A DNA stretch of 64,000 nucleotides. It comes from Thermoanaerobaculia bacterium. Lineage in GTDB: Bacteria; Acidobacteriota; Thermoanaerobaculia; Multivoradales; UBA5704. The notes under the pieces were generated by a model. The model was not told the DNA's origin and ran no database searches. It saw nothing but the letters and a program-made list of their open reading frames with translations. The translations under genes and the position numbers were made by a program. Location: contig JBJMHA010000085.1 of NCBI GenBank assembly GCA_045807625.1, forward strand, positions 38,831 to 102,830. Reading direction: 5' to 3'. How positions within the stretch are numbered: position 1 is the first letter of the stretch; each line of letters begins with the position of its first letter. Positions 4,615 through 42,361 of this stretch are shown here, one piece after another.

Positions 4615-4689
4615 TGGGGCGTCGCCAAGTGGTAAGGCACCAGACTTTGGATCTGGCATCCGGAGGTTCGAATCCTCCCGCCCCAACCA
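4615..4689 (+). tRNA. tRNA-Gln (anticodon UUG)
   Basis: Cloverleaf folded by hand: acceptor TGGGGCG/CGCCCCA (U1-A72, typical of bacterial tRNA-Gln), D-arm GCC-AAGTGGTAA-GGC, anticodon stem CCAGA/TCTGG with loop CTTTGGA (anticodon TTG), T-arm GGAGG-TTCGAAT-CCTCC, discriminator A, encoded CCA. Confidence 0.85.
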
Positions 4690-16946: not shown

Positions 16947-17561
16947 CTAGGCTTGACCCACTGTGCCAAGCGCAATATCTCCAGCCGGAACATAGGTGCT
17001 CATCACGACGCCAGATGCTGAGACCTTCGAAGCCACGAGCCGCAGTGCACATGGCCTTGCGCCTTTTTCAAACAATCGCTTCCCACGGCCAAGGACGACG
17101 GGGTACGTCCATACGTGGTATTCGTCAATGAGAGATGCGGCTTGTAGCGTCTGAATTAGATTGCCGCTGCCAATGATTTGAAGATCGTGTCCGGGCTGCC
17201 CCTTGAGCGCGGTGATGGCAGAAACGACGTCACCGCCAAGTACCGATGAGTTGTTCCATTTCAATGACTTCAACGTGCGGGACGCCACATGTTTTTTTGC
17301 CGCGTTGAACGTCCGCGCAATCGCATTATCCTCTGCTTGGTGAGGCCAATAAGCCGCGAACATTTCGTAGGTTTTTCGGCCGAGTACAAGCTCTCGATCT
17401 TTACCATCGAAACCTGCCGCAGAAAGATCCGTTGTTTCGTCCCAGAAAGCCGAGGTCCAACCACCTAACGTAAAATTTCCGGTTGGATCTTCGTCCGGTC
17501 CGCCTGGCGCCTGCATGACACCGTCCAGTGATGTAAATGTGGACGCGATGAGTTTTCTCAT
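16947..17561 (-). CDS. Dihydrofolate reductase family protein (RibD C-terminal-domain type)
   Basis: MRKLIASTFTSLDGVMQAPGGPDEDPTGNFTLGGW...LVLGRKTYE...GSGNLIQTL pattern of the RibD_C/YwjB family; GC content visibly lower (~52%) than surroundings. Confidence 0.75.
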   Translation of the reverse strand: MRKLIASTFTSLDGVMQAPGGPDEDPTGNFTLGGWTSAFWDETTDLSAAGFDGKDRELVLGRKTYEMFAAYWPHQAEDNAIARTFNAAKKHVASRTLKSLKWNNSSVLGGDVVSAITALKGQPGHDLQIIGSGNLIQTLQAASLIDEYHVWTYPVVLGRGKRLFEKGARPCALRLVASKVSASGVVMSTYVPAGDIALGTVGQA

Positions 17562-17700
17562 ATAACTCTCCTATGATTGGATTACATCGTGCTCGCTAAC
17601 GCTTGAGCTGAGCGGCACACCGCAGCGACCGAGCGTCAGCGAGGGCGCGAGGATGTGTCCGCTCGAGCGAGTGTTAGGCGGCGACCTGTCCAGCCAGTTG

Positions 17701-18171
17701 TTACTCCCAATCCTTTTTCAGCATCAGCTCATCTATCCTGTAGGCGTGAAGCATCTCATGCATCAGCATATGCCTGAACATTATATACACCGAGTAGTGG
17801 CTGAACGCCTCATGCTCGGCCGTCCGCTGCCAATCGTCTGCGGATAGCTCCTTCAACCGCTTAACGACCAGCGTCCGCTCCCGCACGTACCGGCCCAGCG
17901 CTTCGTCCAGATCAACGCTCAGTAGTGAGCCGGCCTCCTCGTCCGGTGATGGTTCCATAGACTTTATTTGGGGGAGCGGGTCAGAGAGCATCAACTCCAA
18001 GCGTGCGAGGAATGTCGCCTGCCCGGTAGATATGTGACAGGCATGCTCGTGAGCGGACCACTTGTTCGGCGCAGGGCGGCGCTTGAGGTTCTGGGGTGGC
18101 ACCTCGCGGACGAGGCCAATGATAATGCCAGGCGCGGCCTCTAAAGTAGCTATCAACGTTTGCGTATTCAT
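17701..18171 (-). CDS. DinB/YfiT-like (DinB_2) family metal-dependent protein
   Basis: 156 aa with HEHACHISTGQATFLARL ... MLMHEMLHAYRIDELM four-helix-bundle His motifs typical of DinB_2; low GC like neighbour. Confidence 0.75.
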   Translation of the reverse strand: MNTQTLIATLEAAPGIIIGLVREVPPQNLKRRPAPNKWSAHEHACHISTGQATFLARLELMLSDPLPQIKSMEPSPDEEAGSLLSVDLDEALGRYVRERTLVVKRLKELSADDWQRTAEHEAFSHYSVYIMFRHMLMHEMLHAYRIDELMLKKDWE

Positions 18172-18561
18172 AATCTCCTCCTTAGTCGCGCGCCGCCAGC
18201 AAGCCGCCGCCGAGTAGGCCAGGGGGCCTTACGGCCCCCCAGCCCCTCTAAGAACCGTACGTGCGAGTTTCCCCGCATACGGCTCAAGCACCTCAAAGGC
18301 CGATCCCTTGATCGAACCCGGCTGCCCCTTACGGGACAACCTTCGCGATACTAACATGGTAGGCACCAGGCTCTGGACTCGCCAGAGGAGGGGCTGCACC
18401 GGCGGGTGGTCGAACCACCTCCACCTCTCTTTGCTCTTCCCGTTTAAGGGTGTTCTCGGGGGGCGAGGTGCCATCCGATTCGCGGCGGTTTACCCCCCTC
18501 GCAAACCCAAGTGGTTCTAGGGTGAATCAGATTCGGGACCGATTTTACGTCTTCATAGGGT

Positions 18562-19482
18562 ATGAGCCGACGACTCCGCTTCATCCCCGAAGGAGGAGCC
18601 CTGGTGGAGGTGACCTGCCGGTCGCTCCACAGCCGTCTCCTGTTCCGTCCCAGTCCCGTGCTGAACCAGATCATCATCGGGACTCTCGCCCGGGCCAAGC
18701 AGCGCCACCAGGTCCGGGTCTGTTTCTTCGTCGGCGTCTCCAATCATATGCATCTCTTGCTATGGGTTGAGGACGCCCAAGTGCTATCCAAGTTTATGGG
18801 CTACTTCCTATCGAAGCTGGCGCGGGAGGTCGGGCGCCTGACCGGCTGGAAGGAGAAGATCTTCGGCCGGCGCTACCAGGCCATCGTGGTCAGCCCCGAG
18901 GAGGCCGCCCAGGTCGAGCGACTCCGCTACGGGCTCGCGCACGGCGCGAAAGAGGACCTTGTGGACCGGCCCCGGGATTGGCCCGGAGTCCACGCCGTGC
19001 GGGCGTTGCTCGAAGGCGAGGTCCTGGAAGGGCTCTGGTTCGACCGCACCCAGGAGTACCTGGCGCGCCGCCGTGGCGAGAAGTTTGACCGCCTTCAGTA
19101 CGCGACGCGGGAGGTGCTGGAGCTCGATCCGCTGCCCTGCTGGGAGCACCTGACGGCAGAGCAGAGGCGCGTCCGGATCGCGGCCCTGGTGGAGGACATC
19201 GAGTCCGAGGTCGCCGTCCGGAGGAAGAAGACGGGCGCCAAGCCTCTGGGTGTGGCGGCCGTCCTGGCCAAGAATCCGCTCCAGCGACCGAAGAAGACCA
19301 AAAAGTCGCCCGCGCCGGCTTTCCATGCGGCGAGCAGGGCCGTGCGCCGCGGGCTCTGGGACGCCTACTCCCTGTTCGTCGCGGCCTACCGTACCGCGGC
19401 TGAGAAGCTCCGGGCCGGGATCCGCGACGTGGTCTTCCCCCGGGGGAGCTTCCCGCCACCGTTGCCGTTCGTGGGTGGATAG
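18562..19482 (+). CDS. REP-associated tyrosine transposase (RAYT; IS200/IS605-like Y1 HuH transposase family)
   Basis: 306 aa; HuH motif in VSNHMHLLLWVED, downstream catalytic-Tyr region GRRYQAIVV; window contains multiple GTAG-headed REP/REPIN palindromes, the known substrates of RAYTs. Confidence 0.7.
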   Translation: MSRRLRFIPEGGALVEVTCRSLHSRLLFRPSPVLNQIIIGTLARAKQRHQVRVCFFVGVSNHMHLLLWVEDAQVLSKFMGYFLSKLAREVGRLTGWKEKIFGRRYQAIVVSPEEAAQVERLRYGLAHGAKEDLVDRPRDWPGVHAVRALLEGEVLEGLWFDRTQEYLARRRGEKFDRLQYATREVLELDPLPCWEHLTAEQRRVRIAALVEDIESEVAVRRKKTGAKPLGVAAVLAKNPLQRPKKTKKSPAPAFHAASRAVRRGLWDAYSLFVAAYRTAAEKLRAGIRDVVFPRGSFPPPLPFVGG

Positions 19483-28787: not shown

Positions 28788-31309
<2,522 letters not shown>

Positions 31310-31313
<4 letters not shown>

Positions 31314-31885
31314 TGGAGGAGCCCCGGGCGCAGGGCGTGGCGAAGGTAGATCCGTGCCTTGTCCCAATGCCGCTGCACCGTGCGCTCGCTGGACCCCCGG
31401 AGGCTGGCGATCTCGGCGAAGGTGAAGCCGCAGAAGAACTTGAGCTCGACGACTTGCGCGATTTCGGGCTCCACGGCGGCGAGCTCGTCGAGAGCCTGGC
31501 TGAGCCGCTCCATCTCCTCGGCCTCGTCCGAAGGGGTTGCGTCGCCCAGATCCTTGCCGTCGAGAGAGGTCATCGCGAAATCGCCGCCGCGCTTCTGAGC
31601 CTGCCGGCGGCGCAGGCCGTCGACGATCAAGCCGCGCATGACCCGGGCCGCATACCCGAGGAACCGGGCGCGGTCGGGGAAAGCCAGGTCCTCGCGGCGG
31701 GCCAGATCGAGATAAGCCTCATGAAGCAGGCTGGTCGCGCCGAGCGAAGCGCCCGGACCCGACCGCGCGAGCTCGCGGCGGGCGAGCCCGCGGAGCTCCC
31801 GGTAGAACGCCGAGAAAAGTGCTTCGGAGCCTTGGCCGTCGCCGCGATTGGTGGGGGGGATCGGAATTGAGAAGGAGCGTTCCAT
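31310..31885 (-). CDS. ECF-type RNA polymerase sigma factor (kinase-associated subfamily, TIGR02999-like)
   Basis: 191 aa from ATG 31885: ...LFSAFYRELRGLARRELAR...LLHEAYLDLARR... region 2 and ...AQVVELKFFCGFTFAEIASLRGSSERTVQRHWDKARIYLRHAL region 4 HTH; immediately upstream of the STK. Confidence 0.8.
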
Positions 31886-32035
31886 GGGTCGCCTCGCTGT
31901 CCCTACGGAAGCGTGCCGAGGCCGCGAAGCTTGCGGTCTCGCACTGTCGAGGAGGGAACGCTCGGGAGGGGGATTTCCCCTCACACTGGGAGGGACCGCC
32001 ATGGGCCATGCCGCGGATGGGGAACGCGCGGTGTG

Positions 32036-32272
32036 ATGTATGATAGAGCCATGCAACTCGCTACCGGTATCGTTGTGAAGGGAAAAGTCGTCGTGGAGGG
32101 AGAACCCCTGCCCGAGGGCACCGTGGTCACCATTCTTGCCCGTGAAGCGGACGAGACCTTCGAAGTGCCGCCGGAGCTCGAGGCCGAGCTTTCGGCGTCC
32201 ATTGCTGAAGCCGACCGTGGCGAGACCATCGCCGCAGACGAGCTGATCGATCGCCTGCGGCGGATCGCTTGA
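32036..32272 (+). CDS. Putative type II antitoxin (addiction-module component, TIGR02574-like C-terminus)
   Basis: MYDRAMQLATGIVVKGKVVVEGEPLPEGTVVTILAREADETFEVPPELEAELSASIAEADRGETIAADELIDRLRRIA; C-terminal acidic EIE..AE...GE.I.A.E...RL pattern of that family; stop overlaps TTG start of a ParE-like remnant. Confidence 0.55.
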   Translation: MYDRAMQLATGIVVKGKVVVEGEPLPEGTVVTILAREADETFEVPPELEAELSASIAEADRGETIAADELIDRLRRIA

Positions 32273-32403
32273 GCAAAGGTCTAGAGGTCGAGGTCACACC
32301 GCGAGCCGCGGCGCAGATCGAGCGGGCCGCGGCATGGTGGGCTGAGAACCGGCGCAGCGAACATGCTGTAGACTCTGGCAGGCTTGTTCATCTAGCGTTG
32401 TAG
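32269..32403 (+). pseudogene. Truncated ParE/RelE-family toxin gene (N-terminal ~35 codons retained)
   Basis: TTG-start ORF LSKGLEVEVTPRAAAQIERAAAWWAENRRSEHA... matches ParE N-terminus pattern (V.WTP.A..D...I..YIA..NP.AA) then diverges into low-GC sequence and stops at 32401-32403; start overlaps antitoxin stop (TTGA). Confidence 0.45.
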
Positions 32404-32544
32404 ACTGGAGAGAGGCTAGAGTAGTGGCACCAAATCCCCCTGAAGAAATGCTCTAGTCCCTTGCAGGCTATAATATGTTTGATCATGATAAGCCAAGCTC
32501 CGATGTCGCTAAGCCGGGACATTGCTGATCGAGATCGGTGAGCG

Positions 32545-35500
32545 ATGCTGGGGCTTACGGCAGCACATCGGGGTTATGAATATCAGGATCTTCTCGTCGC
32601 TTGCCGCCTTGTCGACGTACTTTTAGGCACCCTCGTCCAGGTCCATGTAGATGAGAAGTTGATTCCTGGTGACCGCTTTGACGATCTTACAACCGTAGAT
32701 ATCAGTGGTCACCGTGAGCGGATTCAATTCAAACACACAGATAACGACGACAAACCTCTAACACTCGCGACGTTTACGAGCGACGATAGAGGTCTTCGGC
32801 TTGATCGCCTCATCGCCGCGATACTCACCGACCGTTTAGGCCCAGGAAGTCATTCTAAGCATCATAGCTTTCGCGTGATTCTTCGGGATAAGCCGCCCTT
32901 AGATCCGCGCCTCACGGCCGTCCTAGCTCCCACCGCAGTTGATCCAGGGCCATTCATACCGGCCATGCCGACAATACGACTGGCCTTTGATGCTGAGGCC
33001 TTGTGGAAACACGTCGAGCAAAAGTCCAACATAGATTCACCCCCTGGTGAGGGTTATTTCGGATTCCTTTCTAATGAAGAGATGCCTATGTTGCGAGCTG
33101 ACCTCGAATGGGCGTGCCAGCACCTCATAATCGAGGTAGCGGCTCCAGCAGCAAGTGGAGACCTGACAACCCCTGAGATAGCCGAACGCCTGCTCCTAAT
33201 GCGAGTCCGTACCGACGTTGGCGCGGAGGCATACCCTAATGTGAACCGCTCTGCGATTGATGTCGCTGCGGCGATGATTGGAGCTGCCCGCGCAGCCCGT
33301 CAGAGGCGACTTATTATTTCCTCTGACGAGTTACTTCGCTGGGCGCAGTTGCGCCACGATTTCGGGGCCGTCTCACGCGCTCATCCGGTTGATCGTAGCG
33401 TCGAGGTTTTAAGAACAATAACAGTCCGAAAGCTTGCAGAGTCTACGGCTGAGCTAGCAAATATCGGAGGGCGACTTCTTGTGGTCGGTCCGCCTGGTCA
33501 AGGTAAGTCGTGGGTTTGTCAGCAACTTCTAGACGAGCTGTCATCCCGCGGATGGCTTACTTCGGAGCACTACTGCTATTTGGGCGATGCCGATGGTGAG
33601 CGATTGGCGCGAGTTCTCGCAGAAACAGTCTTTGGAAGTCTCCTCGGTCGGCTCGCTGATGCCGATCCCAGGTTAGTCGTCGACCATCGGCCACGTTTCG
33701 CAGCTGACGAGGAGGCGCTCATCGGTTGTCTCACTCGGTCCCTCCAATATGATCCGCAACGCCCAGTGGCACTTCTAGTGGACGGAATCGATCACATAAC
33801 TCGAATTCGTTCTAGAGGTGGCAACTTTGATCCTTCCTTGAACCTTGCTGAGGCACTTAGCGCCCTGGCGTTGCCGAAGGGTAGCGTGCTAATCGTCTTG
33901 AGTCAACCTGGGGTACATCTAAAGCCCCTCGAAGAGGCGGGAGCTACAACACTTACCATCCCCGGGTTAGACGAGATTGAGATTCGTTCGCTCGCTGCAC
34001 GTCTCCGTGTCGTGCCTCCGATAGGCATGGCCTCTTACAATGGCGACAGACCATTGCTCGAGACTGACGAAGCTGTATCTGAGTTTCTTTCGGCGCTAGC
34101 AGATCGATCAGCAGGCAACGCTCTGTATGCCACGTATCTTTGCAGGGAGGCCCTCCGTCAGGACTCCACACCTGCGGACCCGGCTACCATAGTGAGAAGC
34201 TTCCCTCCATTCGATGGAACACTCGAGAGCTACTATCAATACTTGCATTCAACGCTTGGTGCCGAAAGTGGGTGGGTTGCCGATGTCATTGCCTTAATAG
34301 ACTTTGCTGTCAACCGTTCCGAGTTACTTGAGATCAGGCCAGATGCATCGCATCATATCGACAAGGCTCTCGAAGTTCTTGCTCCAGTTCTCGTAGAGCG
34401 AGCTGCTCAAGGCGGCGTTCGTATATACCATGAATCCTTTGCTAGATTCCTGCGTCGCCCATTTCAGAACGATCCTATCGCGCTCGGTGCTCTCCTCAAT
34501 CTGATCGCTGCTTGGTTGGAGAGAAAAGGCTTCTTCTCAGACCCTCGAGCTTTCAGCTCTCTCCTTCCGACTCTTACCGAAGCTGGTCGCGATGCTGAAG
34601 TGGTCACTCTCATAGAGCGAGGCTTCGTGGTTCGTGCAGTAGCCGCCGGTTTCTCGGCATCTTCTATTAACAACAACCTCGCAACTGCAATTGGATCCGC
34701 AGCGCGGATCAAGAATTGGCCGGCTGTTGCCCGTTATGTAGAGCTGTCGCGAGCTGCGGATGCTTATCAGGACGAACGCTTTGATTCCAGTTTAGTGCAA
34801 TTCGCCGATATACCGATGGCGTTACTCGGACCAGGAGTTGTTTCGGATCGCTTACTGCATAACGATCGGCTTGTAATGCCCGCGAGGTCTGGGCTTCAGA
34901 TGTGTGCCGCTGTCGACGAACTCGGTGCGGTTGCACCTTGGAGTCAGTACATGAGAGGGTATCTGCGCGAAGCTAAAGCTGACAATACCTCTTATGGTGC
35001 AGAATCCGACCGCAAAGTGGCTCTGGCATGGTTGCGCGGTCGGCTTCGCCTCTCAGTGTTGTTGGAGAGCTCAGAACATCAAGCTAATCTTGGGAGCCAC
35101 GATGATGATAACGATGGCGAGCCGAATGACAGAGAATGGAACCCGGCTAGCCCGCTGGATTGGAACCGTTTAGTGCATTGGGTGAATAGGCGAAGGCTTC
35201 CTGCATTCGATGTGGTCAAGGCTATCTACGATACCTATGGCCTGCCGAGCGTGATTAAGTTTATTCGAATGCTTGATCGTCCGGGAGATATGTATTTGGC
35301 GCTCGCTGAGTTAACCATGGTTAATGGAGCTGTTGATAGCACTATCAATGCGCGACAGTGGGCAATCAATGCCGCATCTTGCGGAGTGGTGCCAGGTTCA
35401 GCGTATCGGATGCTGGCGCTTGGAGTAGATCTATCAAATCTTGCAATCTTATCTGTTAGTGATGCCCGTGATCGCTTGCTATCTCTGACGCAGGATCTCC

Positions 35501-38500
35501 AACATCGATCCGCTCAGTGGGAAGGTTCGAGTATTGGTGAGTGGCTAGATGCGTGTGCCGTTGCTGCCCGTCGAGATTTACTTGGTCTTAACTCCGCCGA
35601 GGCGCTTATTTGTGGAGAAGGATGGTACCGATGCTGGCTTCGATTCTGTGTGGCACTCGTGCGTGCGGAGTCCGCCCACGTCGCTGATCAATCAGTCCTC
35701 GCTCTGGATGCGCTCCGTTGCCTTACTGAAGACCTAAATCCTTTTTCGGGCGAGCCCCGATCGTGCGATCTTTATTCGATCCATGGACGAATAGAGGATA
35801 CAATCCGACGGGCCATGGGCCTCCTTAACGATTCTGGATGGTCGGAAGCTCTTTTGCTGCTGAGAGGAGTTAGTCGATCAATAACAACGACCATCCAAGG
35901 AGAGTTGGGCGGTCCACTTCCGCCTAGTTTGCTTCTCCGGATCGCTCTCGATGGGGCAACGCCAACGCGCCGAGAGGTTGCCACCGATTTTGTCGCAGAA
36001 GAGATTGAGAACGGATCTGCACGTCGATACTATTCAGATCTGGCAGAGTATCGTCTCCTTGGATCCCGGCTCGCGCTTGCTTCGGGTGAAAGAGTAGAAG
36101 CAACTCGACTGTGGCATGAGGCTTGTGAGATGCTTACGGCTTATGGGTGGCACAAAGATATTACAATTTACGAGCTACTTGATCCCTTGCCGGCTCTTAT
36201 TGCTGCGGACCCGGCTCGTAGCCGTAACTGCGTAGCACGCGTGCAACCGGTATGCGAGAGAGTTCCCATCCACACTGACGGAAAGGGAACTCGCCAAGTT
36301 TGGGAGCGCTGGTGGGAACTGCTAGCCAAAGCGGATCCAGTAGCCCTTGCACACCTTGCAGCAAGTCGTCTGCTATGTGAATGCAATGATCCCAACTGGT
36401 TGCTGCATGGTGCACTGGTAGACCTTTGGCGTGAGTGGCAGGAGAGAACAGATCCGATCATTGCGGGCGCTCTCCGGCTTACTCTTGATATCGCATTAGA
36501 TCCTAGAGATCCTCTCGCGCTCGCCCGTCTGACGGATCGAATTAACAGAGGCGACAGTAGCTGTAATGAGCTAATGGCTCTGCTCCTGGCGAGAGCAGAT
36601 GAGCGCCCAGTGGAATATAGCTACTCAAATAGCAGTGAGTTGCTCGCGAAAGACGATGCGCGCATGGCGGAGTTCAACCTCGTGGCGCAACAAGCGAATT
36701 TACCACAAGCTATGCCCGTTCGCGAATTCCGTGATGGAGCATCGCCGTCGCGGTCCCTGCGCGGCGCTGTACGCCGTTCCTTATCTAAAGCTGCTTTTGT
36801 CTTCACGGATATTACTGCTTGTTTTCCTGCCGGCGCTGTTGGGCTCGCTTATGCGACACGGGCATGGCGTAGCCGCCCCTATGATGCGCCAGAGGCAAAC
36901 TGGAGTGTGGATCGCTTCGCAAACATCATTGGCTACCGAATGATAGAGCTCATAAATACCGGAAGAGAGGGGGACATGGTGGCCTCACTGTTATCACTTG
37001 CCGAGGCAACGAGGTTCTATGACCAATTCGGCATACTACGAGCAGTAGCAGAGGGACTGGAGCGCCATCGTCAGCATCGCCTTGCGGCTATGGCTTATAC
37101 GCTTGCCTGGACGAGGGCGCGCAACCACGGTGGTTGGCTGAGGTTCGGAGGAGAAACTGAGATCGATTCGTTGCACCGTGCCACTCAGTTGGATCATGGA
37201 CTCGTACTCAGTGTTGTCGCGGATGAGGTTCAGAGAACTGTTGCCGGAGGTTACGGCACCTACGGAATCTCCCAAGCTCTCATCTACGGTTTTGGGGTCG
37301 GAGCACTTTCCTCCTGCGGCACCTCATCCTTAGATACAGCGTTTGGTGTATGGGACGAAATTTTTTCTGTCATTGCAAGTAGGGCACCGCGGGTACACCC
37401 GTCGGATGACCCCGATGATACGTACACTCCACCCGATCCGGATGATGGCACCGCCGCTCCAGGTGACCTGGACGCTGCGTTGGCCCTGAGCACTCTTGCA
37501 GGTCTTGCCCATCCCGCCCGTGAGAAGAAGCGGCGAACATTGTTAGCGGTGCAACTTCTATTGTCCGAACGCCCGACCCAATCAGCACTCGCCGTAGACC
37601 TTGCCCTTGCCAATCTTTCAGACCCGGCAACACTTACTTGGTTACTTCGGGTGGTAGAGCAGTCGGGTGAGCCGAGGGAGATCGTGGTTGCTAAGTGTCA
37701 GGAAACTCTTACACGACTAGCTACTGGGCCGTACTTGACGATCCGCGCACTTGCACGGCGCCTTCTGCGGGGAGCCGAACCGCCCTTGCCACCGCCGACA
37801 CCTGCGGATAGAGCGCTCGTTGAAGACTGCTCAGTAGACCTCTGGACCCCGCATGGAAATAACTATGAGCCTCTACAGCCGCCTGGACGAAATGAAGAGT
37901 TCTTGGATCTAGTGGCTGGGTTAAGGCTGGAAGAAGCCGAGTCTCTATTGCCGGGGCTTCGAAAAGGTGTGCTCACCCGCCTATCCACTGCAATCCACGA
38001 TGAAACTCGTCAGAAACGGCTGCGTGCACAACTTGATGCCTTCGCCGATCGCCTCGGTCAACAATGGCCAAATGCTTATTTGATACCAGAGCAGACTGTC
38101 GAGGAAATGCTACAACTTGTAGCAACTGGCGGACGTGCGGCTCGGATCGTAAAGGGCAACCCAAGCACTGATCCGGTGCGATGGGAAGATACGCTCGCCT
38201 CTAAGCTTCTCGACGACCCAATGCTACCGATCCGAGTTGAAGGTTGCCGACAGCCACGACCACTAATCCCACCACCACCGGCGCTTCGGGATCCAATCTG
38301 GAGTGATGTTGCGAGTGAACGTGAGCAGGTACTAGCCGCAACTTTGACAGTGGAGTCCTTTGACACTGCTGCAATTATGGCCGGAGGTCGGTTCCATGGT
38401 TGGCGAGTTATTGCTACTGTAGAGACACGAATGGTTAAGCATCCCGATCCAAATATACGCAAGGAACTCGTCGCCAAGCGCTATAGAGCCCTCGAAGTCA

Positions 38501-38976
38501 GAAAGCCTGGTGATCGACGGGGACTAACTTTACCACCCTTTGCAGGGGGTGATATACGTTGGTGGAGCACCTCAGTCGAAGATTTTTCTAATTCGAAGCC
38601 ACACACTCTTAGTGGAAGCCACCCTGTTATTGGTCTAGATAATGATGTCGAGGCGGCAGGCGACGGCCTCCAGAGTCTCGGAATCCCGATACCACTCCTC
38701 TGTCCTACCATTTGGTTGATGGCAACTTTGGGCCTTCGTCCGGGAGAGCCGTTTATACTCGACGCTGAGGATGGCCCTGGCCTTTCGCTCGTTATATGGC
38801 GTACGGATTACGACACCAGTGAGTACTATCTAACGCGCCCTCGTATTTGGGGAGCGGCGATCTTTATGCGGCAAGCTATGCTCGATCGACTAGTTGATGC
38901 GGTCGGTAGTGCTCTCAGCATTCGGGACTTCATCGTTGGTGACTTGGATCTAAGCTCTCCTGCGAGAGAGACTTAG
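32545..38976 (+). CDS. Giant (2143 aa) STAND-type P-loop NTPase with N-terminal nuclease-like domain and long helical C-terminal region; Avs/AVAST-like candidate anti-phage protein
   Basis: Single uninterrupted ORF in a ~53% GC island. N-term GYEYQDLLVACRLVDVL...HVDEKL...DLTTVDISGHRERIQFKH (restriction-endonuclease-fold-like, Cap4/DUF4297-like); Walker A VVGPPGQGKSW (~aa 314-324); Walker B ALLVDGIDH (~aa 402-410); then ~1600 aa of Leu/Ala/Arg-rich helical sequence. Confidence 0.85.
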   Translation: MLGLTAAHRGYEYQDLLVACRLVDVLLGTLVQVHVDEKLIPGDRFDDLTTVDISGHRERIQFKHTDNDDKPLTLATFTSDDRGLRLDRLIAAILTDRLGPGSHSKHHSFRVILRDKPPLDPRLTAVLAPTAVDPGPFIPAMPTIRLAFDAEALWKHVEQKSNIDSPPGEGYFGFLSNEEMPMLRADLEWACQHLIIEVAAPAASGDLTTPEIAERLLLMRVRTDVGAEAYPNVNRSAIDVAAAMIGAARAARQRRLIISSDELLRWAQLRHDFGAVSRAHPVDRSVEVLRTITVRKLAESTAELANIGGRLLVVGPPGQGKSWVCQQLLDELSSRGWLTSEHYCYLGDADGERLARVLAETVFGSLLGRLADADPRLVVDHRPRFAADEEALIGCLTRSLQYDPQRPVALLVDGIDHITRIRSRGGNFDPSLNLAEALSALALPKGSVLIVLSQPGVHLKPLEEAGATTLTIPGLDEIEIRSLAARLRVVPPIGMASYNGDRPLLETDEAVSEFLSALADRSAGNALYATYLCREALRQDSTPADPATIVRSFPPFDGTLESYYQYLHSTLGAESGWVADVIALIDFAVNRSELLEIRPDASHHIDKALEVLAPVLVERAAQGGVRIYHESFARFLRRPFQNDPIALGALLNLIAAWLERKGFFSDPRAFSSLLPTLTEAGRDAEVVTLIERGFVVRAVAAGFSASSINNNLATAIGSAARIKNWPAVARYVELSRAADAYQDERFDSSLVQFADIPMALLGPGVVSDRLLHNDRLVMPARSGLQMCAAVDELGAVAPWSQYMRGYLREAKADNTSYGAESDRKVALAWLRGRLRLSVLLESSEHQANLGSHDDDNDGEPNDREWNPASPLDWNRLVHWVNRRRLPAFDVVKAIYDTYGLPSVIKFIRMLDRPGDMYLALAELTMVNGAVDSTINARQWAINAASCGVVPGSAYRMLALGVDLSNLAILSVSDARDRLLSLTQDLQHRSAQWEGSSIGEWLDACAVAARRDLLGLNSAEALICGEGWYRCWLRFCVALVRAESAHVADQSVLALDALRCLTEDLNPFSGEPRSCDLYSIHGRIEDTIRRAMGLLNDSGWSEALLLLRGVSRSITTTIQGELGGPLPPSLLLRIALDGATPTRREVATDFVAEEIENGSARRYYSDLAEYRLLGSRLALASGERVEATRLWHEACEMLTAYGWHKDITIYELLDPLPALIAADPARSRNCVARVQPVCERVPIHTDGKGTRQVWERWWELLAKADPVALAHLAASRLLCECNDPNWLLHGALVDLWREWQERTDPIIAGALRLTLDIALDPRDPLALARLTDRINRGDSSCNELMALLLARADERPVEYSYSNSSELLAKDDARMAEFNLVAQQANLPQAMPVREFRDGASPSRSLRGAVRRSLSKAAFVFTDITACFPAGAVGLAYATRAWRSRPYDAPEANWSVDRFANIIGYRMIELINTGREGDMVASLLSLAEATRFYDQFGILRAVAEGLERHRQHRLAAMAYTLAWTRARNHGGWLRFGGETEIDSLHRATQLDHGLVLSVVADEVQRTVAGGYGTYGISQALIYGFGVGALSSCGTSSLDTAFGVWDEIFSVIASRAPRVHPSDDPDDTYTPPDPDDGTAAPGDLDAALALSTLAGLAHPAREKKRRTLLAVQLLLSERPTQSALAVDLALANLSDPATLTWLLRVVEQSGEPREIVVAKCQETLTRLATGPYLTIRALARRLLRGAEPPLPPPTPADRALVEDCSVDLWTPHGNNYEPLQPPGRNEEFLDLVAGLRLEEAESLLPGLRKGVLTRLSTAIHDETRQKRLRAQLDAFADRLGQQWPNAYLIPEQTVEEMLQLVATGGRAARIVKGNPSTDPVRWEDTLASKLLDDPMLPIRVEGCRQPRPLIPPPPALRDPIWSDVASEREQVLAATLTVESFDTAAIMAGGRFHGWRVIATVETRMVKHPDPNIRKELVAKRYRALEVRKPGDRRGLTLPPFAGGDIRWWSTSVEDFSNSKPHTLSGSHPVIGLDNDVEAAGDGLQSLGIPIPLLCPTIWLMATLGLRPGEPFILDAEDGPGLSLVIWRTDYDTSEYYLTRPRIWGAAIFMRQAMLDRLVDAVGSALSIRDFIVGDLDLSSPARET

Positions 38977-39055
38977 AGTTTTTCAAACGCCCTCCAGTCC
39001 AGCGGAGGTGCAGTCAAAAGGTGCCAGGCAACTTCCCAGACGGTAAGATCCCCCC

Positions 39056-39933: not shown

Positions 39934-40301
39934 ATGAGCGTTCCCAGACTGTCCGCCGTGCTTCTCAACGCTACCATCCTCGTCGCCGGGCTGAGCCAGG
40001 CGACGCTGGCCTTCGCCCAGGGCGCGCCGCCTGCCGCGCCTCCGTCTTCCACGGCGGCTCCGAAGGCGGCCCCGGTCCCCCCGGCATCCGCGCGAGACGA
40101 GAGCCTGCCTCCCTCCGAGGGGCAGGCCAAGGCCGCGCTGGAGAAGTCGCCTCGCTGGGGAAGGCCTACGAGCCCCACGTCTACGACGGCGCCGGTCACG
40201 GCTTCCTGCGGGCCCAGGACGACCGCGCGGGCGCCAACCTCAAGGCGGTGCAGAGCGCTTGGCCGCGCACGGTGGCCTTCCTGCGCGAGCACCTGAAGTG
40301 A
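39934..40301 (+). pseudogene. Dienelactone hydrolase-family gene remnant with internal deletion/frameshift
   Basis: Frame 1 encodes signal peptide MSVPRLSAVLLNATILVAGLSQATLAFAQG...; another frame ending at 40301 encodes GEVASLGKAYEPHVYDGAGHGFLRAQDDRAGANLKAVQSAWPRTVAFLREHLK*, the conserved C-terminus of DLH. Only ~120 codons total vs ~250-290 expected. Confidence 0.5.
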
Positions 40302-40813: not shown

Positions 40814-41266
40814 ATGAGCCTTTCCAGAAAGTCCGCCGTCCTCCTCAGCGCCCTGCTGTCCTTGACATCGCTCGGCGTTGCCGGAGCCGCCGAGGCGCCG
40901 AAGACCGAGATCAAGGGCGCCGCGATCCTCGATCATCCGTGCGGCAAGGTCGCCGTCAAGCAGATGGGATTGATCCACGCCGGCAAGTTCGAGGAGGCCA
41001 ACAAGCTCACCTCGAAGGAGATGCAGGAGCAGTGGAAGGGCCTCTCCGCCAAGGACCGCGAGATGATGACCGGAATGATGAAGGAGATGTCGAAGTCCGA
41101 GGCGGATTTCGCGAAAGACATCAAGGCTTCCGGGGTCCTGGTCATCGAAGGCAACAAGGGAACGCTGACGATCGAGCAGAAGCACAAGGACGACAACGGG
41201 TCAAGCACCGAGAAGATGACCCAGCGCTATACGATCGACGGCGACAAGTGCCTGATCTCGCGGTAG
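40814..41266 (+). CDS. Secreted protein of unknown function (Lys/Glu-rich, lower GC)
   Basis: Signal peptide MSLSRKSAVLLSALLSLTSLGVAGAA; 150 aa; no recognisable domain. Confidence 0.6.
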   Translation: MSLSRKSAVLLSALLSLTSLGVAGAAEAPKTEIKGAAILDHPCGKVAVKQMGLIHAGKFEEANKLTSKEMQEQWKGLSAKDREMMTGMMKEMSKSEADFAKDIKASGVLVIEGNKGTLTIEQKHKDDNGSSTEKMTQRYTIDGDKCLISR

Positions 41267-41292: not shown

Positions 41293-41910
41293 ATGGCCCG
41301 GAGCGCGGCTGAGGAGTACTTCGCCAGAGAGTTCGAGCCCGCGATCCCGGGCTACCGCTCGCGGAAGGCCGGGGACCGCGATCTGCTGTCCATGACCAAG
41401 GTGGCGCTCCTGGAGGCGGTGGAGACCGTGGAGGATCTCCCGCGATCCCACTGGGTCTGGCAGCCCGGCTATGCGGTCCAGACCGTGAACGTCTACCGCA
41501 TCCGGGATCTCTGCACGTTTCGCTTGCGCGAGAATCCCCTGGACGAGCGGGCCTTGTGGACGCGGATTGGGCTCGCCCTGCAGTGCCCGCCGGACGATTT
41601 CGACCGCGACGCCTTCGACAGGCTCCGGAAACTGGATGGCTTCGAGGTGTGCTGGCCGGTCTACGCGGCCTGCTTCATTCAGCAGGCCTGGGCGGCCTCG
41701 CAATCGGTGGGGCTGGGGAAATTCCTGCGAGAGGCGGGGCTCCTCGCCGCGGCCGGTCCGGTCCTCGCGGCCATCCGGGAGCGCCGGGATCCTTATATCG
41801 ACGTCTTTGAATCGGAAGAGCTCACGAGAGAATATGCCGCCGAGTGCCTGGAGATCGCGCTCTGGGAGCCCCCGGCCGATGAGGAGAGCCATGGACGAAG
41901 AGACCCGTAA
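41293..41910 (+). CDS. Hypothetical protein
   Basis: Internal ATG of ORF 40939..41910 (MARSAAEEYFAREFEPAIPGYRSRKAGDRDLL...); start of ORF is inside previous gene so trimmed; overlaps downstream deaminase start. Confidence 0.55.
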   Translation: MARSAAEEYFAREFEPAIPGYRSRKAGDRDLLSMTKVALLEAVETVEDLPRSHWVWQPGYAVQTVNVYRIRDLCTFRLRENPLDERALWTRIGLALQCPPDDFDRDAFDRLRKLDGFEVCWPVYAACFIQQAWAASQSVGLGKFLREAGLLAAAGPVLAAIRERRDPYIDVFESEELTREYAAECLEIALWEPPADEESHGRRDP

Positions 41911-42361
41911 CGATCCCGATTTCGAGCTCATGACGGCCGCTCTGGAGCAGGCGGAGAAGTCCTACCGGGAAGGGGGGCTGCCGATCGGCGCGGTGATGGT
42001 CGAGGACGGCCGGATCGTGGCGCGGGGCCACAACAAGCGGGTCCAGGAGGGGGACCCCATCGCCCATGGGGAGATGGACTGCCTGCGCAACGCTGGCCGG
42101 CGCCGCCGCTACGACAACGTCACCCTGTACACCACCCTGAGCCCCTGCATGATGTGCTCGGGGACGGTCCTCCAGTTCGGCATCCCCCGGGTGGTCGTGG
42201 GGGAGGACGTGACCTTCCCGGGCAATCCCGACTTCCTGCGCCAGCACGGGGTCGAGGTGCGGCTGCTGAACGATGAGCGGTGTAAGCAGCTGATGGAGCG
42301 CTTCATCCGAGAGAAGCCGGAGCTCTGGGACGAGGACATCGCGGGACGGGAGCGGGTGTAG
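41891..42361 (+). CDS. Nucleoside deaminase (CMP/dCMP-type zinc deaminase; TadA/guanine deaminase-like)
   Basis: From ATG 41891: MDEETRNDPDFELMTAALEQAEKSYREGGLPIGAVMVEDGRIVARGHNKRVQEGDPIAHGEMDCLRNAG...TLYTTLSPCMMCSGTVLQFGI: H(A)E and PCxxC zinc motifs. Confidence 0.8.
   Translation: MDEETRNDPDFELMTAALEQAEKSYREGGLPIGAVMVEDGRIVARGHNKRVQEGDPIAHGEMDCLRNAGRRRRYDNVTLYTTLSPCMMCSGTVLQFGIPRVVVGEDVTFPGNPDFLRQHGVEVRLLNDERCKQLMERFIREKPELWDEDIAGRERV

Follow-up and report, generated by a model that had tools for sequence, protein, structure and literature searches.

A recently acquired gene in a Thermoanaerobaculia genome probably encodes a stand-alone Avs-type immune receptor with a Cap4-like N-terminus

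Background

What does a single very long gene of foreign composition encode, and how did it come to lie among the ordinary genes of a Thermoanaerobaculia bacterium? The question is raised by a 64-kb stretch of DNA (64,000 nucleotides of contig JBJMHA010000085.1; hereafter the window), in which a first-pass annotation described a gene for a protein of 2143 amino acids (aa) and proposed that it belongs to the antiviral STAND (Avs, or AVAST) proteins or their like. Avs proteins correspond in bacteria to the NLR immune receptors, each Avs family reading one conserved phage protein fold; published screens for their triggers have focused on Enterobacteriaceae. Our analysis indicates that the gene probably encodes a stand-alone, NLR-like immune receptor of the Avs type that arrived recently by horizontal transfer. 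The three-part architecture of the protein, the folds of its effector and switch domains, the invariance of key residues, the single-gene organization, the patchy distribution of the family and the defence and mobile-element context of its homologues are established here.

Results and discussion

Three-part architecture of the encoded protein

Avs proteins share a tripartite plan of effector, STAND NTPase and sensor, and two of them, SeAvs3 and SeAvs7, activate a Cap4 nuclease by tetramerization (PMC12803255; 10.64898/2026.04.30.721860). In the broad sense applied here, this plan consists of an N-terminal effector, a central STAND NTPase and a C-terminal sensor of at least 400 aa that is mostly TPR-like; the protein of the window is built in this way, with a Cap4-like domain at aa 1-280, an NTPase at aa 281-640 and a helical region from aa 641 (Table 1). 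The motifs quoted in the first-pass annotation (an N-terminal stretch, HVDEKL, GPPGQGKS and LLVDGIDH) are all present where it had placed them; within the N-terminal domain, GYEYQDLLVACRLVDVL occupies aa 10-26, HVDEKL aa 34-39 and IQFKH aa 60-64.

The earlier proposal of an N-terminal nuclease of the Cap4/DUF4297 type agrees with the predicted structure. An AlphaFold2 (AF2) model of aa 1-300, built from an alignment of 76 sequences (predicted local distance difference test score, pLDDT, 91.2; predicted template modelling score, pTM, 0.86), has an alpha-beta-beta-beta-alpha-beta core (helix 13-27; strands 30-35, 48-52 and 56-63; helix 86-98; strand 106-113). Foldseek matches it in the PDB to HamA of Hachiman (8zue, E 1.3e-5), SeAvs3 (8dgc, E 1.9e-5), Cap4 (7yia, E 2.6e-4; 7yib, E 6.3e-3) and LmuA of Lamassu (9nxx, E 6e-3), which are all Cap4-type PD-(D/E)xK nucleases; each of these matches aligns over approximately 290-330 columns, essentially the full 300 residues, and classical restriction or repair nucleases stand lower in the list. 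Pfam Cap4_nuclease (PF14130, DUF4297) matches weakly in 6 of 19 N-termini of the family (best E 1.4e-4). The domain thus displays the structural marks of a Cap4 nuclease: a PD-(D/E)xK core, a conserved acidic residue, a (D/E/Q)xK motif and similarity to a Cap4 structure. In alignments of 31, 76 and 19 sequences, which include plasmid-borne relatives of 25-30% identity, D36, K38, D46, D47, Q61 and K63 are invariant, and together with H8, G10, Y11, Y13, Q14, D15, D43 and R59 they are unchanged in plasmid-borne relatives of no more than 24-29% identity; in the model, D46/D47 and Q61-x-K63 occupy the canonical catalytic positions of the PD-(D/E)xK fold, for which a putative catalytic role may be proposed.

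The second module is a STAND NTPase, as had also been suggested. The whole protein yields only sub-threshold P-loop matches in Pfam; with aa 281-700 scanned alone, AAA_16, AAA_22 and NPHP3_N exceed their cut-offs, and NACHT (PF05729) scores 21.2 bits on the isolated module against a cut-off of 26.7, which leaves the protein outside the NACHT clade; among the 120 homologues listed, PF05729 is annotated in 3. An AF2 model of aa 281-1480 (pLDDT 82.9, pTM 0.71) consists of a P-loop nucleotide-binding domain (NBD), a helical domain (HD), the hairpin of a winged-helix domain (WHD) and thereafter helices only. This domain order, in which an NBD bearing the Walker A and B motifs precedes a helical and then a winged-helix domain, is that of the STAND superfamily, and on the model the assignment is secure. 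The modelled conformation is closed and resting-like, resembling resting MalT, NRC2 and Apaf-1. Just past the WHD hairpin (model residues 336-347, aa 616-627) lies the invariant, His-containing sequence YHESF, whose position resembles that of the MHD/LHD motif in NLRs and Apaf-1 and which may be its equivalent.

Among PDB structures, SeAvs3 is the top Foldseek match to this model (E 3.2e-13 over 1343 columns), seven orders of magnitude ahead of the next; MalT, Apaf-1, the archaeal STAND-TPR protein PH0952, CED-4, the plant NLRs NRC2, ZAR1 and RPP1, and ORC/Cdc6 follow. The special closeness to Avs3 is suggestive, its basis being one local alignment of repeat-rich proteins. MalT, Apaf-1, CED-4 and the plant NLRs carry other effectors and sensors, and the protein of the window has no helix-turn-helix (HTH), CARD, TIR or LRR domain.

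Next comes a long helical region, in keeping with the first description: aa 640-1480 are all-alpha in the model, the region putatively running on to aa 1930, and neither the sensor region nor the C-terminal region has a Pfam family. Within the family, mean pairwise identity reaches 0.57 in the nuclease, 0.56-0.62 in the NTPase and 0.48-0.57 in the sensor blocks; it falls to 0.18-0.30 in three poorly conserved linkers of the sensor (approximately aa 841-900, 1391-1430 and 1761-1790) and is 0.42 in the C-terminus. Judged from these identities, the sensor is conserved almost to the level of the enzyme domains, and conservation is even along the chain. The C-terminal region, in which W1953, E1960, E1984, W2007, G2046, W2085, R2086 and Y2089 are invariant, is conserved less than any other part across the broader superfamily and is detected in 60 of 84 full-length representatives.

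A large single-gene family scattered across phyla

More than 100 full-length homologues of 2110-2200 aa are 47-57% identical to the protein of the window, and an exhaustive HMMER search with aa 281-1480 recovers 766 clusters (50% identity) at E<=1e-3. Of the best 150, the 84 representatives that reach 1900 aa are without exception collinear and retain the Cap4-like N-terminus, the NTPase and sensor blocks S1-S3, divergence across them being limited to the last ~350 aa. In a collection with one genome for each of 185,579 species, relatives are encoded in 90 stretches from more than ten phyla. Numerous Streptomyces and Kitasatospora are among the hosts, as are Acidimicrobiales, Chloroflexota, several Acidobacteriota, Alpha- and Gammaproteobacteria, Gemmatimonadota, Rhodothermales, Desulfobacterales, Bipolaricaulota and Elusimicrobia, and one copy lies on a Streptomyces plasmid; distant relatives are carried by plasmids of Pseudanabaena, Moraxella and Pseudoalteromonas. 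Searches of 50,697 phage records and of IMG/VR returned no relatives. The proteins closest to that of the window come from other phyla, and another copy from Thermoanaerobaculia is only 50% identical to it.

On the Moraxella osloensis plasmid pSKB0120-2 (locus L084, 4199-12758), a 1586-aa distant relative that shares the Cap4-like and NTPase parts directly follows a 1248-aa STAND protein resembling PD-Lambda-4 (Avs8) with an Avs4-type N-terminus, in a tandem STAND array with a CARF-like protein of 709 aa upstream. The tblastn matches in an Actinomycetota metagenome-assembled genome (MAG; L020, 8001-16711) and on a Streptomyces okerensis plasmid (L081, 8001-16340) extend over approximately 8.3-8.7 kb against the usual ~6.4 kb, which suggests that these copies are interrupted or extended, for example by an insertion within the gene. 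Many short proteins (224-848 aa), encoded on long contigs of up to 1.1 Mb, also fall into the 90%-identity cluster of a full-length homologue (P0091) and may be truncated or fragmented copies in related genomes.

Defence and mobile-element genes around the homologues

The homologues are found mostly among restriction-modification, CBASS, Shedu, Hachiman, Lamassu and Gabija-like genes, integrases and transposases. Defence-type genes lie within 8 kb in seven of the seven homologue loci with precomputed annotation, some of which also contain toxin-antitoxin (TA) pairs, recombinases or insertion sequences; the annotated genes comprise type I restriction-modification systems, methyltransferases of the MmeI or Eco57I type, OLD/AAA_15 ATPases, DUF4238, a 1518-aa NACHT protein, TA pairs and an integrase plus resolvase. 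A scan of 125 immediate neighbours from 65 loci yielded strong PADLOC matches to a CBASS cyclase, type I and II restriction enzymes, SduA, HamB, LmuA, ShosA, BrxH, DrmD, PDC-M23B and HEC-06, and Pfam matches to six phage-type integrases, transposases, two GmrSD, two NACHT, MazG_C and AGS_C. Proximity to defence genes is expressed here as counts rather than as a formal enrichment statistic; as background, approximately 1.5% of random non-defence genes lie within 5 kb of a defence system (PMC12803255). Both marks of a defence STAND protein used in that survey, a defence effector and/or defence neighbours, are present, with Cap4 in 84 of 84 representatives and defence genes at all seven annotated loci.

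A conserved partner gene was considered and rejected: the 245 flanking ORFs of the 65 loci fall into 221 clusters, the largest of which is present in five loci, and the flanks vary even within Streptomyces. Since the flanking genes are not conserved, the gene stands alone.

Recent arrival by horizontal transfer

The open reading frame (ORF) runs uninterrupted over 6.4 kb, as first described, from an ATG that is the first start codon past an upstream stop through 2143 codons and a stop codon, and its product is 100% identical to NCBI MFL6263058.1 ('MAG: ATP-binding protein [Thermoanaerobaculia bacterium]'). Its guanine-plus-cytosine (GC) content is indeed far below that of its flanks: 0.544 compared to 0.681 in the remaining window, and 0.51-0.57 in 500-nt windows within the ORF compared to 0.68-0.73 in the flanks. 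At third codon positions (GC3) the value of 0.487 is far beyond the range of host ORFs in the window (0.85-0.97), and a 1-kb GC profile identifies the ORF as the sole large low-GC block across the 64 kb. Approximately 190 bp of AT-rich DNA upstream of the ORF arrived together with the gene. A repeat scan of the ends of the low-GC block detected no direct or inverted repeats beyond chance, a terminator scan around the insert likewise gave nothing beyond chance, and no integrase or recombinase marks the insert, the only tRNA gene within the window being at 4615.

The left junction falls within a small gene pair. At a second locus (L086, 6001-6524), a 73-aa gene 93% identical to its counterpart in the window is followed by a 97-aa ORF, and the 4-nt overlap between the two genes is present at both loci. 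The window matches this pair at approximately 93% DNA identity as far as ~32354, approximately 29 of 97 codons into the second gene; beyond this point the similarity is gone and the GC content falls, indicating that foreign DNA cut off a small toxin-like gene. The truncation that the first-pass annotation had noticed is therefore real, and its name for the gene, ParE, is unsupported, as neither the 73-aa gene nor its 97-aa partner has a Pfam or PDB match; the abundant TA-like pair, which recurs in other genomes with the two genes overlapping by 4 nt, appears to be an unannotated family. Of the several decayed TA loci also mentioned, only this one truncated TA-like pair was verified.

The gene was thus acquired recently by horizontal transfer, as indicated by its GC3 (0.49 compared to 0.85-0.97), the host gene cut by the junction, the patchy relatives across phyla and the plasmid-borne distant relatives. 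Low GC is not a property of the family: the idea that the gene is always low in GC was rejected because, over 66 loci, homologue gene GC (0.41-0.72) tracks that of the flanks with a mean difference of -0.004, and the window, with a gene-to-flank gap of -0.137, is the extreme case among the loci examined.

Relationship to named defence systems

The only match to a model of a named defence system is local, to Avs1b (PADLOC PDLC02159, NCBIfam NF041810), at aa 504-637 with 21-22 bits and E 8e-6; this is all that the PADLOC check proposed at the outset returned. In distant members of the family the Avs1b match is collinear over the whole NTPase (29-45 bits). A PHROGs search with the whole protein found nothing. 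Distant relatives were also tried as a bridge to Avs3, four of them through PADLOC and one against PDB sequences, and again gave only weak matches to Avs1b.

By structure, the nearest named protein is SeAvs3 (PDB 8DGC), a sensor of the phage large terminase subunit, which has the same domain order (Cap4-type nuclease, STAND NTPase and long TPR-like sensor), is among the top two PDB matches for the N-terminal model and leads the Foldseek matches by a wide margin for the model of aa 281-1480. Its chain of 2028 aa is similar in size to the protein of the window, so that the latter, at 2143 aa, is only slightly larger than described Avs proteins (the Avs1b profile has 1931 positions), rather than larger than most as had been thought. 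The two affinities, to Avs1b by sequence and to Avs3 by structure, agree with each other, because the structure predicted for Avs1 is very close to that of Avs3 and both proteins recognize the large terminase (10.64898/2026.04.30.721860). Avs1b itself is named a protease by NCBIfam, whereas the protein of the window carries a Cap4 nuclease, and the Avs1b match does not extend into the sensor. Type 1 AVAST comprises several genes, whereas the gene of the window family is a lone gene.

SeAvs7, a sensor of the major capsid protein, likewise unites a Cap4 nuclease, joined to STAND by a short linker, with a STAND NTPase and a TPR sensor, and is activated by tetramerization (PMC12803255). The Avs7 sensor, however, is common to Dsr1 and is paired with at least 20 effectors, whereas the window family keeps its Cap4-like N-terminus in 84 of 84 representatives; the protein of the window has no PADLOC Dsr1 match, and no SeAvs7 structure is among its Foldseek matches. 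Cap4 of CBASS, HamA of Hachiman and LmuA of Lamassu share the fold of the N-terminal 300 aa, and the GYxYQD N-terminal helix and D...QxK core in which the window family resembles them are invariant within it. Their control differs: Cap4 is governed by a SAVED domain and a cyclic oligonucleotide, HamA by the HamB helicase and LmuA by LmuB/C, whereas the nuclease of the window protein is fused to a STAND NTPase.

By analogy, the protein may be expected to work like Avs3 or Avs7, but it should not be filed in either. Because the sequence definitions of Avs3, Avs1b and NACHT all failed to include it, it is assigned to none of these. The Avs-like character proposed in the first-pass annotation therefore holds for the tripartite architecture and not for membership of any named Avs type: by PADLOC, NCBIfam and PDB sequences, this is an uncharacterized family of a known kind, the Cap4-STAND Avs proteins. 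As it started from Cap4-based seeds, the survey of 589 STAND clades and 684 sensor clusters (PMC12803255) may well already contain the family.

Proposed mechanism and alternative explanations

At rest, the NBD, HD and WHD would be closed around ADP, with the N-terminal nuclease monomeric and inactive. Upon infection, the helical C-terminal sensor of ~1500 aa would bind or clamp a conserved phage protein; binding would open the NTPase, allow exchange of ADP for ATP and promote oligomerization, probably into a tetramer as in SeAvs3 and SeAvs7. The Cap4-type PD-(D/E)xK domains so brought together would, by the precedent of Cap4, SeAvs3 and SeAvs7, cut double-stranded DNA indiscriminately and abort the infection. 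Since the nearest relatives by sequence (Avs1b) and by structure (Avs3) sense terminase, the phage large terminase is the leading candidate for the trigger, by analogy and only tentatively. We consider it possible, though on balance doubtful, that the family is a separate Avs lineage fixed to Cap4, whose sensor, including the C-terminal ~210 aa outside Pfam, reads a phage component beyond those of Avs1-21 or reads terminase in a new way; if so, it would represent a new pattern-recognition specificity from hosts well outside Enterobacteriaceae.

Several observations weigh against an Avs-type receptor. What is known of the family comes entirely from sequences, predicted structures and gene context, and the structural models cover aa 1-1480 of 2143. 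The protein of the window has no PF14130 match even at E<=10, and its score against NF041810 is 22.2 bits, whereas the equivalog cut-off is 1500. Searches of PDB sequences (phmmer and two profile searches) found no match, not even SeAvs3; no PADLOC Avs3 model matches at E<=1, nor does the SeAvs3 sequence, also when a distant member is the query. Unlike in many Avs families, no effector swapping is seen in any of the 84 full-length representatives. The defence-island context that the first-pass annotation had assumed applies to the homologue loci and not to the window, where the gene is an isolated insert outside any defence island, the scanned neighbours being ordinary genes (ECF sigma factor, Ser/Thr kinase-TPR protein, NmrA-like protein, deaminase and UvrC). 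A scan for the sigma-70 consensus found no promoter-like site upstream of the ORF, and expression in this host is uncertain because the codon usage is so foreign.

The protein might answer to a different signal, as a conflict-system STAND nuclease that responds to proteins of plasmids or integrative and conjugative elements, to a stress-modified host factor, or to a nucleic-acid or small-molecule ligand, and that serves competition between mobile genetic elements or suicide under stress. Family members that adjoin relaxase or TrwC genes, integrases and transposases, the plasmid-borne distant relatives, the lack of homologues in the phage and viral collections and a C-terminal 210 aa that match no Pfam family would all suit such a role, but every Avs family with an identified trigger senses a phage protein according to a preprint survey (PMC12803255), the neighbours are mainly anti-phage systems, and Avs1 and Avs3, to which the family is closest, detect terminase (10.64898/2026.04.30.721860), so that we hold this explanation to be rather improbable. 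Still further from the evidence is a STAND protein with a regulatory rather than an immune role, on the pattern of MalT, AfsR or LuxR, or some other signalling ATPase, with a DNA-binding or inactive nuclease-like module at its N-terminus: the protein has no HTH or other output domain, its N-terminus has the Cap4/HamA/LmuA nuclease fold with all candidate catalytic residues invariant, its distribution is patchy and non-syntenic even within Streptomyces, and its context is one of defence and mobile-element genes or, in the window, that of a foreign single-gene insert. We consider such a regulator extremely unlikely.

An antiviral receptor could also be silent cargo in this particular genome, a recent acquisition that is intact and yet unexpressed or non-functional. 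The GC3 of 0.49 in a host at ~0.9, the largest gene-to-flank gap of the loci examined, the lack of a sigma-70-like promoter and the position outside a defence island are what such cargo might look like; against this, the frame is open over its full 6.4 kb and none of the conserved motifs is damaged, the promoter scan was restricted to the sigma-70 consensus, and the ~190 bp of AT-rich DNA upstream came with the gene, and we judge silence to be very unlikely. The reading that best accommodates these observations is still a stand-alone Avs-type receptor, which we regard as probable.

Other features of the window

Directly upstream of the insert, a kinase-sigma signalling pair lies on the minus strand at 28788-32056: the gene for an 859-aa protein, a Ser/Thr kinase fused to numerous TPR_12/TPR_10 repeats, runs into the end of the gene for an ECF sigma factor (Sigma70_ECF). 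Downstream by 2.6 kb, a 264-aa protein resembling cytidine/deoxycytidylate deaminases (dCMP_cyt_deam_1, MafB19-like) is encoded at 41567-42361, preceded by two ORFs without family (39934-40296 and 40814-41266). A second, small low-GC patch at 16947-19482 (GC 0.55 at 17001-18000) holds two minus-strand ORFs that by eye resemble dihydrofolate reductase/RibD_C (204 aa) and DinB (156 aa) and adjoins a 306-aa ORF resembling a REP/IS200-type Y1 transposase; this patch may be another small acquired segment.

Table 1. Features of the insert, its gene and its left junction (positions in the window)
Feature	Position	Strand	Remarks
Conserved small gene, 73 aa, antitoxin-like position, host GC	32051..32272	+	1208 homologues, up to 99% identity
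Truncated toxin-like partner	32269..32403	+	First ~29 codons match the 97-aa ORF of L086; unrelated low-GC DNA from ~32355
Low-GC inserted block, single gene	32355..39050		~6.7 kb; 50-nt GC profile and loss of homology to L086
Complete ORF: Cap4-like nuclease, STAND NTPase, helical sensor (Avs-like)	32545..38976	+	2143 aa
Cap4-type PD-(D/E)xK nuclease domain, putative effector, aa 1-280	32545..33384	+	AF2, Foldseek, PF14130 in 6/19 members
Candidate catalytic core, aa 46-63: D46/D47 (start of beta2), E58..Q61-x-K63 (beta3)	32680..32733	+	Invariant; candidate by fold
STAND NTPase module (NBD, helical domain, winged-helix domain), aa 281-640	33385..34464	+	
Walker A GPPGQGKS, aa 315-322	33487..33510	+	G315, P317, G318, G320, K321 invariant
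Walker B LLVDGIDH, aa 410-417	33772..33795	+	D413, G414, D416, H417 invariant
YHESF, aa 628-632, just past WHD beta-hairpin	34426..34440	+	Y628, H629, E630, S631, F632 invariant
Long alpha-helical repeat (TPR-like) sensor region, aa 641-1930	34465..38334	+	All-alpha in AF2 model to aa 1480
C-terminal region, aa 1931-2143	38335..38973	+	Conserved within family; no Pfam match

Conclusions

The window offers a clean example of a putative defence gene caught right after transfer: its GC3 stands out sharply, and the junction could be located to within a few bases inside a toxin-like gene. The family to which the gene belongs is large, strictly single-gene and conserved over its whole length in different phyla; PADLOC 2.0 and NCBIfam do not recognize it, so that routine annotations of defence genes in Streptomyces, Acidobacteriota and many MAGs lack it. 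Its trigger, once identified, would add a receptor-ligand pair from non-enterobacterial hosts, and would also tell whether the terminase-sensing solution of Avs1 and Avs3 extends to this family.

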